The position numbers and the translations under genes are program-made. Below the pieces are notes generated by a model. It searched no databases and was not told where the DNA came from. It saw nothing but the letters and a program-made list of their open reading frames with translations. A DNA stretch of 64,000 nt from Escherichia coli (GTDB lineage Bacteria; Pseudomonadota; Gammaproteobacteria; Enterobacterales; Enterobacteriaceae): the NCBI RefSeq assembly GCF_003991155.1, contig NZ_CP031293.1; one strand, given 5' to 3'. How positions within the stretch are numbered: position 1 is the stretch's first letter; each line of letters starts with the position of its first letter. Shown piece after piece: positions 1 to 36,516 of this stretch.

Positions 1-940
1 GCCGCCGTTACGGGCAGAGATAATATCGGCAGATTTTTCTTTGGCTAACGCAGCAAAATCACCGCCTTTATTCAGCTCATCAAGTACCGCTTTCGCTTCA
101 TCTTCAGTTTTGGTCTGGATGATGCTGTAGCGGGTACGCTGCGGCTGGGTGAATTGATCCTGATGCTGATCGTAGTAGCTCTGGATATCCGCATCGCTAA
201 CCGGTTGCTGCATCGTTGCGGCATCCAGCTTGATGTAACTCACGCGGAATTGTTCCGGCGTCATGAAATTGTTTTTGTTTTGTTCGTAGTAGCTGGCAAT
301 TTCCTGTTCGGTCACAGGCTGCTTCGCCGCCAGCGCGTTAACATCGATAGTCGCTTCACGTACCACGCGTTGTTGAGCTACCAGTGCCGCCAGCTCGTCG
401 GTTTCACCTTTCAGCATAAAATCGGTACCGGCAACGCCGTTAATCAGCTGTTGGGTAGTGAGCTGGTTACGTAGCGCCTGGGCGTACTGATCGGCGGTCA
501 TCCCCATCTGGTTGAGGATACCGTTATAGCGGCTGTTATCAAATTTGCCGTCAACCTGGAAGGCTGGGGTCGCGAAAATCGCCTGTTTAACCTGCTCATC
601 ACTGATACCCAGTTTCAGCTCACGAGCGTACTGATCCAGAAGCGCCTCGTCGATCAGACGATTCAGCACCTGTTGACGCAGGGTTTTCATATAGCCTTCG
701 TTCGCTGCAAGCTCAGAGTATTGATCGCCCAGCTGTTGCTGCATGCGATTACGCTCGCTGTTGAAGGCATTCTCGAACTGCCCACGGCTGATTTCCTGGT
801 CATTCACTTTTGCGGCGTAGTTATTGCCTCCGCCAATCAGGTAACCACTCACGCCGGTCAATATGAACGACACGATAATGATACCGAAAATAATCTTGAG
901 CACGAGACTGTTTGCAGCCGTGCGTAAGCTGTCCATCATG
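1..940 (-). CDS. ppiD: Periplasmic chaperone/peptidyl-prolyl isomerase PpiD, N-terminal part (gene runs off the window start)
   Basis: Minus-strand ATG at 940 (reverse complement of gtccatcat) gives MMDSLRTAANSLVLKIIFGIIIVSF..., a membrane-anchored N-terminus recognised as PpiD; open frame continues to position 1. Confidence 0.8.
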
Positions 941-1130
941 GTGTAACAACACTCCGCTGTAGATGACTGTGTACCTCACGCAACGTATCGATGCGCGCAA
1001 AGGCCTATTGTGACAAGAAACGGGGGCAATTGTCAGCCCACAAGACGCAGAAAGTCACCGATTACAAATAAAAAAGGCACATCAGTAGATGCGCCCTTGA
1101 ACTTCGTCACATCCCCACTGGGGACAACGC

Positions 1131-1403
1131 TTAGTTTACCGCGTCTTTCAGTGCTTTACCTGCACGGAAGCTCGGTACTTTAGCGGCAGCGATGGTGATC
1201 TCTTTACCGGTCTGCGGGTTGCGGCCAGTACGGGCAGCACGCTCTTTAACGGCAAAAGTACCAAAACCTACCAGTGCTACATCATCCCCTTCTTTCAGAG
1301 ATTCAGTTACGGAAGCAATAATAGCATCTAACGCACGGCCAGCCGCAGCTTTAGAGATATCAGCCCCTGCAGCAATCTTGTCGATCAATTGAGATTTATT
1401 CAC
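1131..1403 (-). CDS. hupB: DNA-binding protein HU-beta
   Basis: 90-aa [93 protein letters not shown], recognised as HU-beta. Confidence 0.95.
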
Positions 1404-1540
1404 TCTTCTCTTCCTCTTTATAATTTATATCGCACTTGAATCCTTCAAGGTACGAACGCGCAGCAGTTATATCAGGCCAGCCATCCCCTTACAACACCCC
1501 TTAATAAGGGCAAGCCCAATCCGCCATCTAACTTAGCGAG

Positions 1541-1588
1541 ACAAAAAAAGGCTGGCAAGTCCGAATTAGCCTGCCAGCCCAGTTTTTA
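1541..1588 (-). terminator. Intrinsic terminator-like hairpin downstream of lon (A-tract, GC stem, T-tract; potentially bidirectional)
   Basis: acaaaaaaaggctggcaagtccgaattagcctgccagcccagttttta: stem ggctggca/tgccagcc flanked by an A-run and a T-run, just 3' of the lon stop. Confidence 0.6.
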
Positions 1589-1611
1589 TTAGTGCATTTT
1601 GCGCGAGGTCA

Positions 1612-3966
1612 CTATTTTGCAGTCACAACCTGCATGCCAGACGGTTCATTTTGCAGCGCCAGAGTCAGAACTTCCTCAATGCGTTTCACAGGATGAATAT
1701 CCAGATCGGCAATTACGTTGTCAGGAATCTCTTCCAGATCGCGTTTATTTTCGAACGGAATTAACACTGTTTTAATCCCGCCGCGATGCGCTGCCAGTAG
1801 TTTTTCTTTCAAACCACCGATAGGCAGTACCTGACCACGCAGAGTGATCTCACCGGTCATTGCCACATCGGCACGAACCGGGTTACCGGTCAGGCAAGAA
1901 ACCAGCGCGGTGCACATAGCAATACCGGCACTCGGACCATCTTTCGGCGTCGCACCTTCCGGTACGTGGACGTGGATGTCGCGTTTTTCATAAAAATCAG
2001 GGTTGATCCCCAGTTTTTCCGCACGCGCACGAACCACCGTTAACGCCGCCTGAATGGACTCCTGCATCACTTCGCCAAGCGATCCGGTATAGGTCAGTTT
2101 GCCTTTACCCGGAACGCACGCGGTTTCAATGGTCAGCAAGTCACCGCCCACTTCCGTCCACGCCAGACCAGTTACCTGACCGACACGGTTTTCGTTATCC
2201 GCGCGACCATAGTCGAAACGCTGAACACCGAGATAGTCATGCAGGTTATCGCCGTTAATTTCGATATGTTTTAATGACTTATCGAGCAGTAACTGCTTAA
2301 CCGCTTTGCGACACAGTTTGGAGATTTCACGCTCCAGACCACGCACGCCCGCCTCACGGGTGTAGTAACGAATAATGCCGATAATGGCGCTATCGTCGAC
2401 GGTCAGCTCACCTTTTTTCAGTGCATTACGTTCAATCTGCTTCGGCAGCAGGTGACGTTTGGCGATGTTCAGTTTTTCATCTTCGGTATAACCGGAGAGG
2501 CGAATCACTTCCATACGATCCAGCAGCGGTGCCGGAATGTTCATGGAGTTCGACGTCGCGACAAACATCACGTCGCTAAGGTCGTAATCCACTTCCAGGT
2601 AGTGGTCGCTGAACGCTACGTTCTGCTCTGGATCCAGCACTTCAAGCAGTGCGGAAGCCGGATCGCCTCGCATGTCAGAAGACATTTTGTCGATCTCATC
2701 GAGCAGGAACAGCGGGTTTTTCACGCCCACTTTCGCCATTTTCTGGATCAGTTTACCCGGCATAGAACCGATGTAAGTACGGCGGTGACCACGGATTTCC
2801 GCTTCATCACGCACGCCGCCCAGCGCCATACGGACATATTTACGCCCGGTGGCTTTGGCGATGGACTGCCCCAGGGACGTTTTACCTACCCCCGGTGGCC
2901 CTACCAGGCAGAGGATCGGTCCCTTGATTTTGTTGACACGGCTTTGAACCGCAAGATACTCAAGGATGCGATCTTTCACGCGCTCCAGACCATAATGGTC
3001 GGTATCAAGGATTTCCTGCGCCTGACGCAGGTCTTTTTTGACCTTGCTACGCGCATTCCACGGTACCTGTACCATCCAGTCGATATAACCACGCACTACG
3101 GTCGCTTCTGCCGACATCGGAGACATCATTTTCAGCTTCTGCAACTCTGCTTCCGCTTTCTCTTTTGCCTCTTTCGGCATTTTCGCCGCGTCGATTTTGC
3201 GCTTCAGGGCTTCGTTTTCGTCCGGCGCGTCGTCCATTTCACCGAGTTCTTTCTGAATAGCTTTCATTTGCTCGTTCAGATAGTACTCACGCTGGGATTT
3301 CTCCATCTGCTTTTTAACACGGTTGCGAATGCGTTTCTCAACCTGCAGCAGATCGATTTCCGATTCCATCATTGCCATCAGATATTCCAGACGTTCGTTA
3401 ACGTCGGACATCTCCAGAACGGACTGTTTGTCAGCCAGTTTCAGCGGCATATGTGCAGCAATGGTATCCGCCAGACGCGCCGGATCGTCGATGCTATTCA
3501 GCGACGTCAGCACTTCTGGTGGAATTTTTTTGTTCAGCTTGATGTAGCCTTCGAACTGGCTGATTGCAGTACGCACCAGCACTTCCTGTTCCCGCTCATC
3601 AATGGTCGGCGACTCCAGATACTCCGCCTTCGCAGAAAAGTGTTCGCCATTGTCAGAGAGCGCAGAAATACGCGCGCGCTGTAACCCCTCGACCAGCACT
3701 TTGACGGTGCCGTCAGGCAGTTTCAGCATCTGCAATATAGAGGCCACGGTCCCGACGGTGAAAAGATCGTTTACACCCGGCTCATCCGTTGAAGCTTCTT
3801 TCTGCGCGACCAGCATAATTTTTTTATCATGGTCCATCGCCGCTTCCAGACAACGGATAGATTTTTCCCGCCCGACAAATAAGGGGATGACCATGTGCGG
3901 ATAAACCACCACATCGCGCAGCGGCAATACGGGGATTTCAATGCGTTCAGAACGCTCAGGATTCAT
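1612..3966 (-). CDS. lon: ATP-dependent Lon protease
   Basis: ORF 1612..4011; recognised Lon N-terminus [28 protein letters not shown] begins 15 codons inside the ORF, so start set to 3966. Walker [10 protein letters not shown] and the serine-protease DGPSAG motif are present. Confidence 0.95.
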
Positions 3967-4153
3967 AGAGCTCTCTCTTAGTTTAATTTCCGCCAGGTAA
4001 TCAGATGACACGACTGTGCTTCACGCCATCTATTAACATGTACGTCAGTATATGGGGATGTTTCCCCCACATTCAACGCCGAGAATAGAGGAAAAATTAA
4101 AGGGGAGATAAAATCCCCCCTTTTTGGTTAACTAATTGTATGGGAATGGTTAA

Positions 4154-6177: not shown

Positions 6178-6422
6178 TTCCGTCTCCTGGATAAAATTGA
6201 AAAAACCTGCTGTACCGATTGTAACCTTATGGACGGATTATCAGCTAGTCCCTGTGTTATGGGTACGGCATCACCATATTTCAAGCATAACAATCTTTTG
6301 TTGTTACGCTAACACCGAAAGAGGCTTTTCGCACGGTTCCATGCAAAATTCATGACAAAAAAAAGCCCACCACCTGGCGGTGACGGGCCTTTGTGCGAAT
6401 TTAGCGCGTTATGCTGCGTAAA

Positions 6423-31457: not shown

Positions 31458-31943
<486 letters not shown>

Positions 31944-32057: not shown

Positions 32058-32190
32058 ATGAATACTAACGTTTTTCGACTGCTCCTGCTGGGAAGCCTGT
32101 TCAGCCTTAGCGCCTGTGTGCAGCAAAGCGAAGTGCGGCAGATGAAACACAGCGTCAGCACACTGAACCAGGAGATGACGCAACTCATTG
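32058..32190 (+). pseudogene. yajI: yajI 5' fragment (lipoprotein signal and first ~44 codons), interrupted by an IS insertion
   Basis: MNTNVFRLLLLGSLFSLSACVQQSEVRQMKHSVSTLNQEMTQL..., then the frame runs into IS sequence and stops at 32246; the rest of a YajI-sized protein resumes about 1.76 kb downstream. Confidence 0.7.
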
Positions 32191-32230
32191 ACATCCTCCA
32201 CGCCCTGAAGGACGTGGATCCCTGCTACGT

Positions 32231-33439
32231 TCAGGCTGTCGCCTGAATCATTTCGGTGGGTTCCTGCTTCAACGGGCGGCCTGACTGCACCATCCCTCCA
32301 CAGGCAAGAACGGCGTGCCCCGCCGCTAAAATGTTACGAGCGCCATTTACATCGGCGTTCGCTGTATATCCACATACCTGGCATCTGAATTGACTTTGTG
32401 ACAGGCGATTTTCTTTCGCTGTATGACCACAGCACGTGCAACGCTGGCTTGTGTACGCTGGCGGAACAGCAAGCACCTGACCGCCACGCCAGAGCTGCTT
32501 GTACTCAAGCTGGCGGCGCATTTCATACCAGCCCTGATCCAGTACCGAACGGTTTAAACCTGATTTTGCCCGGACATTGCGTCCCGGCTGGCTGACCGTA
32601 CCCGCTGCTGACTTTGACATGTTGCTGACCTTCAAATCCTCAATGACTATCATTGCGTGGTTTTTGCTGACGGTCGTTGTGACTTTGTGAAGGTAGTCCC
32701 TGCGGATATTTGCGATACGGGAATGCAGTCGCTGTATTTTGCGTTTCTGCTTCTGCCAGTTATTGCTGAATTCGACCTTGCGGCTTAACTGTCGCTGAAG
32801 TCTCGCCAGCGTCTTCTGGTTTTTCTGAAAACTGTTTACAGGCTCAAAGACTGTGCCATCTGACAGCGTGGCGAGTTTAGCCACGCCAGCATCCAGCCCG
32901 ACCATTGATGCTGAAGGGTGAACCGGAGTGGATACTTCACTTTCTGTCTGAATACTGATGTACCACTTACCGCAGGACTGGCTGACAGTGACATTTTTCA
33001 CAACACCCGTGACCTGACGGCTGTTCCGGTAGCGCATCCAGCCCAGTTTCGGCAGAAAAATACGGCTGTTTTCCTGATCGAGCTTAACGCCCTGCGGGTA
33101 GCGGAATGCATCATTCTGTCCCCGCTTTTTGAATCGGGGAAAAGCAGCCCGCTTCTGGAAGAAGTTTTTGTAAGCCCGCTCAAGGTCTTTCAGTGACTGT
33201 TGCAATGGCTGTGAGGGCGAATCTTTAAGCCATTGCGTTCCAGTGGCGTTTTTCCACTCAACCAGCCAGGAAGCCATTTTCCCGTAAGGGATGTATTTAT
33301 TACCGGCCTCATGATTCTCATTCTGAAGCGCCAGAGCACGATTGAAAACGAAACGACATGCGCCTGCGAAGCGCCTCATTTCATGCTCCTGTTGACCACC
33401 GGGTCTTAACTGGAATTTAAATGCCTGTAGTCGTTTCAC
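32231..33439 (-). CDS. tnpB: TnpB (IS605 OrfB; RuvC-like RNA-guided endonuclease), apparently intact
   Basis: 402 aa; RuvC-like motifs [24 protein letters not shown] and [13 protein letters not shown], and a C-terminal zinc finger CTCCGH...CQVCGY. Confidence 0.85.
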
Positions 33440-33454
33440 AGGTCAAATTATATT

Positions 33455-33938
33455 TTGGTCTGTGAAAAAAGAAACCGATATCCGGCGTGGAAGGCATTGT
33501 GTTTTCCTGATGCATGTTCACCTGGTCTTTGTCCCAAATACCGACGCCAGATTTTTGACCATGACGCGACAGAAAAACTACGCACTTACTTTTCAAATGT
33601 ATGTGCTGATTTTGAAGCTGAACGGGTTGAAATGGATGGCGAACCAGATCACGTCCATTTGTTAATTAACTATCCTCCCAAACTGGCGATATCCAGTCTG
33701 GTAAACAGCCTCAAAGGTGTATCGGGTAGGTGACTGCGACGAGATCGACCAGATATTGCAGTCAGGTATTACTACAAAGGCGTTTTGTGGAGTCCTGGCT
33801 ATTTTGCCAGTAGCTGCGGAGGTGCGCCAATATCCGTCATCCGCCAATACATTGAACAACAGCAAACACCTGGTCAGGTGGAAAACCGCGCCTTATATCC
33901 CCGCCCTGAAGGACGGGGTTTTACGGCGCACCGGATAA
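33455..33938 (+). pseudogene. tnpA: tnpA (IS200-type HuH transposase) remnant with frameshift and in-frame stop
   Basis: Three pieces: HVHLVFV (frame from 33462), then PKYRRQIF...DHVHLLINYPPKLAISSLVNSLKGVSGR ending at TGA 33729, then LRRDRPDIAVRYYYKGVLWSPGYFASSCGGAPISVIRQYIEQQ after the stop. The conserved Tyr region (RQYIEQ) lies beyond the stop. Confidence 0.7.
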
Positions 33939-33945
33939 AGAAACC

Positions 33946-34344
33946 GTCAAAATCACTCAGCAAAACAGGCTGAATGCAAAATCCAGCAGTGGGGTTTACC
34001 TTCTGCCTGGAGCGAAAACACCGGCAAGACTGGAAAGCCAGATCGGTACTTTACGTATGTCGCTAGTGAATATTACGCATGATACAGATGGCACCACCCT
34101 GACGCTACGTATTCAGGGCGAGTCGAATGACCCCTTGCCCGCATTCAGCGGAACTGTTGAATATGGGCAAATTCAGGGAACAATAGACAACTTTCAGGAA
34201 ATCAATTTGCAGAATCAATTGATTAATGCCCCTGCCAGCGTCCTCGTCCCCAGCGATGTTGATATTCCGTTACAGTTAAAGGGGATTTCTGTAGAACAGT
34301 TAGACTTTGTACGTATCCACGACATTCAACCTGTTATGCAGTAA
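33946..34344 (+). pseudogene. yajI: yajI 3' fragment (C-terminal ~132 codons), separated from the 5' fragment by the IS
   Basis: Open frame ...TVKITQQNRLNAKSSSGVYLLPGAKTPARLESQIGTLRMSLVNITHDTDGTTLTLRIQGE...IHDIQPVMQ; with the 5' fragment it totals about 176 aa, a plausible full-length lipoprotein. Confidence 0.6.
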
Positions 34345-35564: not shown

Positions 35565-35912
35565 TCACTTCTTCTTGTTCATCATCGCTTTCAGGTCAGC
35601 GAATGGGTTGTACTTCGCTTCACCGACATCTTTCTGCGCATCTTCCCCTGCGATAACGGTCGTACCATACTGATCCGCTTCGGTATATTTCGAATGCTCA
35701 TGATCGTGGCAATAGAGACAAAGCAATTCCCAGTTACTGCCATCTTCCGGGTTATTGGTATGGTCGTGATCAATGTGGTGAACGGTAAGTTCACGCAGGT
35801 TGGAATAAACAAACTCACGGGAACAGCGACCGCAGACCCACGGATAGATTTTTAATGCTTTTTCGCGATAGCCGCTTTCTAACCGCGCATAGTTTTTTGG
35901 GATGATAGCCAT
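35565..35912 (-). CDS. yajD: HNH-endonuclease-family protein YajD
   Basis: 115 aa MAIIPKNYARLESGYREKALKIYPWVCGRCSREFVYSNLRELTVHHIDHDHTNNPEDGSNWELLCLYCHDHEH (HNH/zinc motif). Confidence 0.9.
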   Translation of the reverse strand: MAIIPKNYARLESGYREKALKIYPWVCGRCSREFVYSNLRELTVHHIDHDHTNNPEDGSNWELLCLYCHDHEHSKYTEADQYGTTVIAGEDAQKDVGEAKYNPFADLKAMMNKKK

Positions 35913-35999: not shown

Positions 36000-36314
36000 T
36001 TACCAGTGACGGCGAGGTTCCATCAGCTGATGAAGAATGCGCGCAATGAGAATGTCATCGACTCTTATAACGTAATAAACAGTGTGAAACCTAAATGCGA
36101 TCTTCTTTACCTCTGGAATCGCATCATAGTCTTGCCCTATCTCGGGCATTTGAGAGAGTGTATCCAGAAAAATGCCGAGAGAGTCGGTGTAGCGATCCGC
36201 CTGCTCCTCACCAAACTTTCCCAGCGTGTAGTCATAGATCCCTCTGAAATCTTCAACAGCTTTTCCGCTAAGCTTATACACGATGTTTTTGCTTCCTTTC
36301 TGCTGCGATATCAC
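36000..36314 (-). CDS. parE: ParE/RelE-superfamily toxin (type II TA)
   Basis: 104 aa from GTG at 36314; ...IVYKLSGKAVEDFRGIYDY...HTVYYVIRVDDILIARILHQLMEPRRHW matches the ParE pattern; overlaps upstream antitoxin gene by 41 nt. Confidence 0.7.
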   Translation of the reverse strand: MISQQKGSKNIVYKLSGKAVEDFRGIYDYTLGKFGEEQADRYTDSLGIFLDTLSQMPEIGQDYDAIPEVKKIAFRFHTVYYVIRVDDILIARILHQLMEPRRHW

Positions 36315-36516
36315 GAAGCGTCATCGAACTTTCACCGCTCTCAAGACCTTCAATAACAGCATTTCTGACAGCTTCATCCCTGGATTCTTGTTGTTCCAAT
36401 AGACGAAGCGCTGAACGCATTACTTCACTGGCCGAGCCATAACGACCAGACTGGACCATCCGTGTAATAAAACTATCTAATTGTTCGCCAACGCTTACTG
36501 AGGTAATTTTGCGCAT
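36274..36516 (-). CDS. parD: ParD-like antitoxin (ribbon-helix-helix)
   Basis: 80 aa MRKITSVSVGEQLDSFITRMVQSGRYGSASEVMRSALRLLEQQESRDEAV..., matching the ParD G-x-Y-x-SASE-V-x-R-x-A-x-R-x-L signature; RBS ggaga upstream. Confidence 0.7.
   Translation of the reverse strand: MRKITSVSVGEQLDSFITRMVQSGRYGSASEVMRSALRLLEQQESRDEAVRNAVIEGLESGESSMTLRDIAAERKQKHRV

Follow-up and report, generated by a model that had tools for sequence, protein, structure and literature searches.

A copy of IS609 in yajI of Escherichia coli with a decayed tnpA, an intact tnpB and a predicted omegaRNA

The yajI locus and its insertion

The stretch of DNA analysed here, referred to below as the window, comprises 64,000 nucleotides of an Escherichia coli chromosome (contig NZ_CP031293.1 of NCBI RefSeq assembly GCF_003991155.1). 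In it the lipoprotein gene yajI, located between nrdR (31458-31907, minus strand) and tsx (from about 34640), is cut in two by a 1,747-bp insert at 32188-33934. An initial annotation, made from the nucleotide sequence alone, had placed an element of the IS200/IS605 family in yajI and called for comparison with IS605/IS609-like elements. This was carried out against the feature annotated in strain K-12 as 'insertion sequence:IS609' (1,748 bp, ydcL-ydcO), and the two share 97.88% nucleotide identity over the whole length. By the convention of ISfinder, elements with at least about 95% nucleotide identity are regarded as the same element, and by this measure the insert is a copy of the known IS609, a member of the IS200/IS605 family. 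Its transposase gene tnpA is decayed, while the adjoining tnpB is intact and overlaps at its 3' end with a predicted guide RNA (omegaRNA). The top strand of the transposon corresponds to the minus strand of the window, so that the coordinates rise from the right end to the left end. The features of the locus are as follows.

32058-32187, plus strand: yajI 5' fragment, 130 nt (43 codons and 1 base), encoding a 19-aa lipoprotein signal and Cys20; aligns with K-12 yajI through ...CAACTCA
32172-32187 (read from 32187 down to 32172), minus strand: predicted omegaRNA guide TGAGTTGCGTCATCTC, in the flank that adjoins the right end on its 3' side
32188-33934, minus strand: IS609 (IS200/IS605 family), 1,747 bp
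32188-32357, minus strand: predicted omegaRNA scaffold, overlapping the 3' end of tnpB and the right end; 5' limit approximate
32197-32218, minus strand: right-end subterminal imperfect hairpin, CCACG-T-CC TTCAG GG-CGTGG, followed by AGGATGTCAA up to the cleavage site after TCAA
32231-33439, minus strand: tnpB (insQ), an intact gene for 402 aa, with D183, E267 and D363 as catalytic residues and a zinc finger formed by C334, C337, C353 and C356
33447-33877, plus strand: tnpA pseudogene (Y1 HUH transposase), with four lesions relative to the intact 143-aa tnpA of the O157:H7 copy
33899-33918, minus strand: left-end subterminal imperfect hairpin, CCCCG-T-CC TTCAG GG-CGGGG, preceded by AAAA, the putative guide tetranucleotide for the cleavage site
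33935-33939, minus strand: target and putative target-adjacent motif (TAM) 5'-TTTAT (core TTAT), adjoining the left end; yajI sequence and not part of the element
33935-34344, plus strand: yajI 3' fragment, 410 nt, decaying, starting with ATAAAG...

The two pieces of yajI together make up 540 nt, which equals the length of the K-12 gene. The initial annotation was right in describing two pieces, though its 5' piece of a signal peptide plus about 44 codons was too long, since the 43 codons and 1 base found here include the signal and Cys20. In the RefSeq annotation of strain IAI39 both are present as yajI (DUF3251) fragments, the 5' one labelled 'DUF3251... missing C-terminus' and the 3' one 'missing N-terminus', together with an InsQ/TnpB protein; the insertion is thus already known.

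Alignment with K-12 yajI set the junction on the nrdR side after ...CAACTCA. The empty yajI alleles of strains 88-3493 and 181.1 read ...ACTCA followed directly by ATAAAGAAAC, identical to the join of 32187 to 33935. As the empty alleles equal this exact join, the insertion was precise, with neither duplication nor deletion of the target, which is a hallmark of the family. The alignment to an uninterrupted allele that had been recommended at the outset thus fixed both ends as well as the target, TTAT or TTTAT. The start at 32188 stood as proposed, whereas the end was moved from 33945 to 33934, 11 nt shorter, on the evidence of the empty alleles and of the ends found at six loci.

These loci are yajI, a TetR gene next to ytfB, ydcL-ydcO, yedK, yeaQ and yfeD, and nine copies from them were aligned. 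All nine have the same plus-strand start, TTGACATCC..., and the same end, ...GGCGCACCGG. The left-end flank is ATAA (plus strand, beside ...CACCGG) at six of six loci, the next base being A in four and G in two; read on the tnpB strand, IS609 lies directly 3' of 5'-TTAT (TTTAT or CTTAT) and terminates in ...GGAGGATGTCAA at every locus. The same right-end terminus is invariant in 11 relatives, and the right-end boundary at 32188 is confirmed by their flanks, which are unrelated from the next base on. TTTAT is also present in the empty yajI alleles. The uninterrupted yajI of K-12 has TTGAT at this position, unoccupied. Alignment with this gene had suggested TTGAT as the target, a possibility ruled out by the closer empty alleles and the six loci, all of which have TTAT or TTTAT; K-12 carries a variant at one base of the site.

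Two exact copies of a 14-mer, CGCCCTGAAGGACG, lie in direct orientation on the same strand (32201-32214 and 33902-33915), the chance expectation for matches to it with at most 2 mismatches being about 0.35 in the window. The initial annotation had seen an identical loop, ccctgaagga, in hairpins at both ends. The sharing and the direct orientation hold, but part of this 'loop' is actually paired, and on the tnpB strand both hairpins take the form CCxCG-T-CC/TTCAG/GG-CGxGG with one extra T. The DNA fold of the right-end hairpin has a predicted energy of -9.3 kcal/mol (z = -2.4), with compensatory changes in relatives, and that of the left-end hairpin -14.1 kcal/mol (z = -2.6). The element therefore has what defines its family: subterminal hairpins in direct orientation, no terminal inverted repeats, and insertion 3' of a short specific sequence without target-site duplication. 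The hairpins, the TCAA right-end cleavage site and the TTAT flank are all intact.

The distribution of the element was determined in 5,426 complete E. coli genomes, with IS609 counted by megablast at a coverage of at least 80%. It was found in 4,858 of them, at a median of 2 places per genome, and the occupied yajI::IS609 junction was found in 340. An empty TTTAT allele of yajI with a perfect match to the predicted guide was detected by a 35-nt probe in 1,889 genomes (about 35%); the remaining uninterrupted genomes, about 3,200, gave no match to the TTTAT probe, and K-12, the one read directly, has TTGAT. The yajI-locus copies of strains MEI003 and JCH767 diverge from the window element by 1.3-1.5%, and their left and right flanks from those of the window by 1.0% and 3.3%, respectively; in MEI003 the yajI 3' fragment has in addition suffered a 1-nt deletion. 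Because element and flanks diverge to a similar extent and 340 genomes share the junction, the data fit a single old inherited insertion followed by decay of the pseudogene. Independent recent insertions into yajI in each lineage are not favoured, the divergence of the element (1.3%) being of the same order as that of the flanks (1.0-3.3%). In comparison with K-12, MEI003 and JCH767, the yajI 3' fragment of the window carries 8 lineage-private substitutions in 400 nt (33935-34334), and such substitutions are far fewer in the nrdR-side flank, which fits a relaxation of selection once the element had inserted.

Decay of tnpA and conservation of tnpB

The intact 143-aa TnpA of the O157:H7 copy (WP_000604943.1) belongs to the family of IS200 transposases (145.7 bits against NCBIfam transpos_IS200, cutoff 55). 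Compared with its gene, the tnpA of the window has lost its start codon (ATG to ATT, 33447-33449), an A from GTC(A)CC between 33533 and 33534, and its natural stop codon (TAG to CAG, 33875-33877), and has gained an in-frame stop (TTA to TGA, 33731-33733); the motifs HVHLL and RQYIEQQ are still present. The deletion and the TGA had been reported in the initial annotation. Both are real, though the deletion is not in a T-run near 33525 and the TGA is at 33731-33733 rather than 33729; tnpA was rightly called decayed, with the altered start and stop codons overlooked. With the start lost, the frame shifted and a nonsense codon present, it is well supported that this copy lacks the functional TnpA in cis on which autonomy depends, and the earlier statement that the element is not autonomously mobile follows from these lesions.

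The initial annotation had left room for an assembly error at the frameshift. More than 40 independently assembled complete genomes, IAI39 among them, share at 100% identity a 1,841-bp stretch that takes in the element together with flanking sequence, and in IAI39 the NCBI annotation pipeline describes tnpA as 'frameshifted; internal stop'; the lesions are therefore not assembly errors. An autonomous element whose frameshift and stop are artefacts of sequencing or assembly has nothing in its favour beyond the general possibility of such errors. It is further contradicted by the number of places at which the TGA allele occurs (given below) and by the loss of start and stop codons, which are independent lesions, and it can be discarded.

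Among the nine aligned copies the ATG to ATT change and the 1-nt deletion are private to this lineage, and the TGA codon is shared across four loci (yajI, ydcL, yedK and yfeD). With a 45-nt probe that seeds only on an exact match at this base, the TGA allele was counted at 3,375 places in 2,728 genomes and the TTA allele at 6,321 places in 3,889 genomes. The presence of TGA at four loci, its high count and a difference at this base between the closely related yajI copies of MEI003 and JCH767 together suggest that a tnpA-null variant moved between loci, either by mobilisation in trans or by gene conversion.

IAI39 was checked in five regions for a second IS609 with an intact tnpA; the canonical ydcL-insQ-ydcO locus is deleted, and the other IS609-like place in this genome was not located. 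At 1805001-1835000 of IAI39, an IS3-family element cuts aldA short and pptA/yddH follow directly, which together with the missing ydcL-insQ-ydcO genes indicates an IS-associated deletion of tens of kb relative to K-12. The mirror state is found in the yeaQ/yeaR copy of E. coli A28, where tnpA is intact (143 aa) and tnpB is frameshifted by a 1-nt deletion.

The divergent arrangement of tnpB (minus strand) and tnpA (plus strand) had been recognised from the start, as had an intact 402-aa TnpB with RuvC motifs and a CxxC...CxxC zinc finger. The protein scored 386.5 bits against NCBIfam guided_TnpB (cutoff 100) and aligned end to end with the structures of ISDra2 TnpB (8EXA and 8H1J, E = 1e-53). 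D183, E267 and D363 fall on the catalytic positions and all four cysteines are present, so that it has the RuvC D-E-D triad and the C-terminal zinc finger expected of a TnpB. Selection was estimated from eight intact copies. The ratio of non-synonymous to synonymous polymorphism (pN/pS) was 0.16-0.40, about 0.3, and the segregating sites comprised 29 synonymous (S = 271) and 31 non-synonymous ones (N = 935; binomial P = 1e-5). The two yajI-locus lineages differ in tnpB by 9 synonymous versus 8 non-synonymous changes (P = 0.006). By these estimates purifying selection has acted on tnpB while the adjoining tnpA decayed. A retained tnpB beside a lost tnpA is the typical state in the IS200/IS605 family.

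The start of tnpB (GTG, 33439, minus strand) and the ancestral start of tnpA (33447, plus strand) are divergent, with 7 nt between them. The promoter of each gene must therefore sit within the coding sequence of the other, and this overlap may limit the extent to which the dead tnpA can decay.

The predicted omegaRNA and neighbouring features

A scaffold for an omegaRNA is predicted on the tnpB strand, from the 3' end of tnpB to the right end, and its guide, TGAGTTGCGTCATCTC, would be taken from the adjoining yajI flank. The guide was given a length of 16 nt, assumed by analogy with ISDra2; it has a single exact copy in the window and no other close match there. A search of Rfam with E-value reporting covered 4.5 kb, and its sole hits were three families known from the 3' regions of TnpB genes, all on the tnpB strand and confined to the 3' end of tnpB and the right end.

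32175-32298, minus strand: HgcC, 23.8 bits (threshold 50), sub-threshold
32261-32304, minus strand: RAGATH-18, 28.1 bits (threshold 44.9), sub-threshold
32197-32358, minus strand: sot0042, 17 bits (threshold 88), sub-threshold

The alignment with HgcC covers the terminal hairpin and GGAGGAUGUCAA, and then 13 nt of the yajI flank. A distant blastn search with this region against plasmids disclosed relatives with 70-95% identity in Salmonella, Tatumella, Klebsiella, E. fergusonii, E. albertii and Xanthomonas. In an alignment of 11 sequences GGAGGATG(T/C)CAA is essentially invariant and is followed directly by unrelated sequence. The consensus fold of the 11 homologues has 45 pairs, with 91.5% of cells paired versus 37-48% when the partners were slid. 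Within this fold, predicted from the same alignment, 12 pairs have changed on both sides versus 4.8±1.4 after shuffling, and none of 500 shuffles reached 12. These results support the prediction of a conserved, covarying omegaRNA scaffold that extends from the 3' end of tnpB to the right end.

A few further observations concern this region. A terminator-like hairpin, CAGTGTGCTGACGCTG, with a T-rich tail lies at 32150-32165 on the minus strand, just 3' of the predicted guide and within the yajI 5' fragment; it could mark the end of the omegaRNA transcript or have arisen by chance. tnpB and the omegaRNA share their reading direction with the downstream genes nrdR-ribD-ribH-nusB. About 140 nt of an IS609-like right end and scaffold, 77-79% identical and ending in GGAGGATGCCAA, are present without an upstream tnpB in IncY plasmids of E. 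fergusonii (L017, 151-289) and E. albertii (L020, 151-289), near the start of the plasmid record and upstream of an AAA ATPase gene; either a remnant or a mobile element that encodes no protein is conceivable. The 31-nt module made up of the right-end hairpin and GGAGGATGTCAA is 96.8% identical to a segment of a haloarchaeal plasmid from Natrinema salinisoli (NZ_CP084470.1, 110820-110850), and this agrees with the matches, below threshold, to HgcC and sot0042, which are archaeal Rfam families.

Elsewhere in the window a toxin-antitoxin pair is located at 36000-36516 on the minus strand, between yajD (35565-35912) and secF (from 36667). It consists of a RelE/ParE-family toxin (36000-36281, or to 36314 by open reading frame) and a ParD antitoxin (36274-36516), and appears to be an insertion relative to K-12, whose secF-yajD gap seems too short to hold it. 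The small RNA sraA (4038-4133, plus strand, 106.7 bits) is the only Rfam family at gathering score in the 64-kb window.

Interpretation and comparison with known systems

Taken together, the data show an IS609 copy in yajI whose tnpA is dead, and the probable reading is that its tnpB and predicted omegaRNA may still be functional at the donor joint. The initial annotation had spoken of a potentially active RNA-guided nuclease. This is a reasonable inference, given the purifying selection on tnpB and the conserved scaffold of the guide RNA.

IS609 entered yajI by the single-strand 'peel-and-paste' of its family, 3' of TTAT (TTTAT) on the tnpB strand. On the reading favoured here, a second IS609 copy could still provide the TnpA needed to excise or mobilise the one in yajI. 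TnpB would bind the omegaRNA, whose 3' guide derives from the yajI flank, and the complex would cut the unoccupied allele, in which TTTAT is followed directly by TGAGTTGCG...; this is the 'donor joint' that excision recreates. Repair from an occupied copy, such as the sister chromosome, would then restore the element or let it spread, leading to homing or retention. The nuclease is presumably idle here unless excision or imported DNA supplies a target, because the insert lies between the TAM and the guide match and leaves no resident target; excision in turn would need TnpA in trans, as there is none in cis. Cleavage of the donor joint and retention of the transposon by TnpB, including a TnpB with the TAM TTTAT, have been described for Geobacillus elements (bioRxiv 10.1101/2023.03.14.532601). 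The mechanism of TnpB and its omegaRNA is drawn from the work on ISDra2 (PMC8612924), and the rules for pairing of cleavage site and guide from IS608 TnpA (PMC3201880).

Several points weigh against a functional TnpB. A promoter scan for a sigma-70-type signal gave nothing above chance, and four residues of this TnpB (H19, G67, E223 and V299) do not occur in any of the other seven intact copies in the comparison. Within the element all Rfam hits stay below their gathering thresholds, and since the covariation was tested on a structure predicted from the same alignment it counts as support and not as proof. The purifying selection could reflect past selection during the spread of the element rather than present function at this locus. 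Intact motifs are no guarantee of activity either, as the TnpB of Helicobacter pylori IS608 was inactive in interference assays (bioRxiv 10.1101/2023.03.14.532601). An IS609-type TnpB has been purified and screened for trans-cleavage, with only another orthologue singled out as highly active and no result reported for cis-cleavage (PMC12781874).

Much of this would suit an element that is an inert relic as a whole, with tnpB simply not broken so far and either unexpressed or inactivated by its private missense changes, which persists only because it cannot excise. The dead tnpA agrees with such a relic, as do the promoter scan, the private residues and the inactivity of some natural TnpBs in assays, and the mirror case of A28 shows that either gene can decay. 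Over the same time, however, tnpA gained four disabling lesions and the three-times-longer tnpB none, the excess of synonymous changes is seen both species-wide and within the yajI lineage, and the scaffold and the right-end terminus are conserved. A relic of this kind is therefore considered rather unlikely.

Another explanation is that the host has co-opted TnpB and the omegaRNA of the tnpA-dead element, either as a guard of the allele against incoming uninterrupted yajI or as a regulator, and that selection acts on this role and not on homing. About 90% of E. coli genomes contain IS609 with an insQ that looks intact, and most annotations of tnpA give it as a pseudogene; the TGA allele is widespread at its four loci, a perfectly matched target with its TAM exists in 35% of genomes, and tnpB has the low pN/pS given above. 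The same evidence fits ordinary selfish retention equally well. The catalytic triad is intact, unlike in the nuclease-dead regulators derived from TnpB, and in the literature on the function of IS609 and insQ, which is very sparse, no support was found for a role of insQ in the host. Co-option is held to be very improbable.

A related proposal is that the tnpA-dead IS609 is kept as the resident TnpB-omegaRNA cuts entering yajI alleles of the TTTAT type, acting as a chromosomal allele drive or guard without transposition. We regard this as unlikely. If it were true, the guard would protect or spread the occupied allele, and the TTGAT allele of the K-12 type would be immune. The value of the present copy for annotation is low, as IS609 is catalogued, K-12 has a near-identical tnpA-dead copy (yncK/insQ), and RefSeq marks the insertion in hundreds of genomes. 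What it offers, with the functional IS609 nuclease still the favoured reading, is a natural example in one species of occupied alleles (340), matching empty alleles with the right TAM (1,889) and alleles with the variant TTGAT. As these three types circulate together, homing or allele guarding by the TnpB of a native E. coli element could be tested in its own host.

The closest known system is the IS609 of K-12 at ydcL-ydcO, annotated as yncK (tnpA pseudogene) and insQ ('putative RNA-guided DNA endonuclease'). It has the same divergent layout, ends and TTAT flank, and its tnpA carries the same TTA to TGA nonsense codon. The window copy differs in its location at yajI, in the additional private lesions of tnpA (ATG to ATT and the 1-nt deletion) and in the four private TnpB residues.

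IS608 of H. pylori likewise has subterminal imperfect hairpins with an extra T and a TCAA right end 10 nt past the foot of the hairpin, and inserts 3' of a tetranucleotide without duplication. The genes of IS608 are co-directional, whereas tnpA and tnpB of the window copy are divergent. The target also differs, being TTAC at 19 nt from the left hairpin in IS608 and TTAT at 16 nt in IS609. The AAAA located 5' of the left hairpin of IS609 matches TTAT position by position, as AAAG does TTAC in IS608 (PMC3201880), and by this analogy we infer that AAAA is the guide tetranucleotide for the target TTAT, in agreement with the six observed flanks.

The TnpB of Deinococcus radiodurans ISDra2 is homologous over its full length, with the D-E-D triad and the zinc finger aligned, and its omegaRNA comes from the 3' end of tnpB and the right end, as predicted here for IS609. 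The two proteins share only about 40% identity, and the TAM of ISDra2 is TTGAT (PMC8612924), versus the TTAT or TTTAT deduced for IS609. In Geobacillus stearothermophilus, ISGst and its TnpB2 show the arrangement proposed here for yajI, in which the TAM and the right-end flank form the donor joint that is cut by TnpB with its omegaRNA, and the TAM is again TTTAT. Most ISGst copies also lack a working tnpA and need TnpA in trans (bioRxiv 10.1101/2023.03.14.532601). The host is a different one and the sequences are distant, and the function that has been established by experiment for ISGst is, for IS609, deduced from its sequence.

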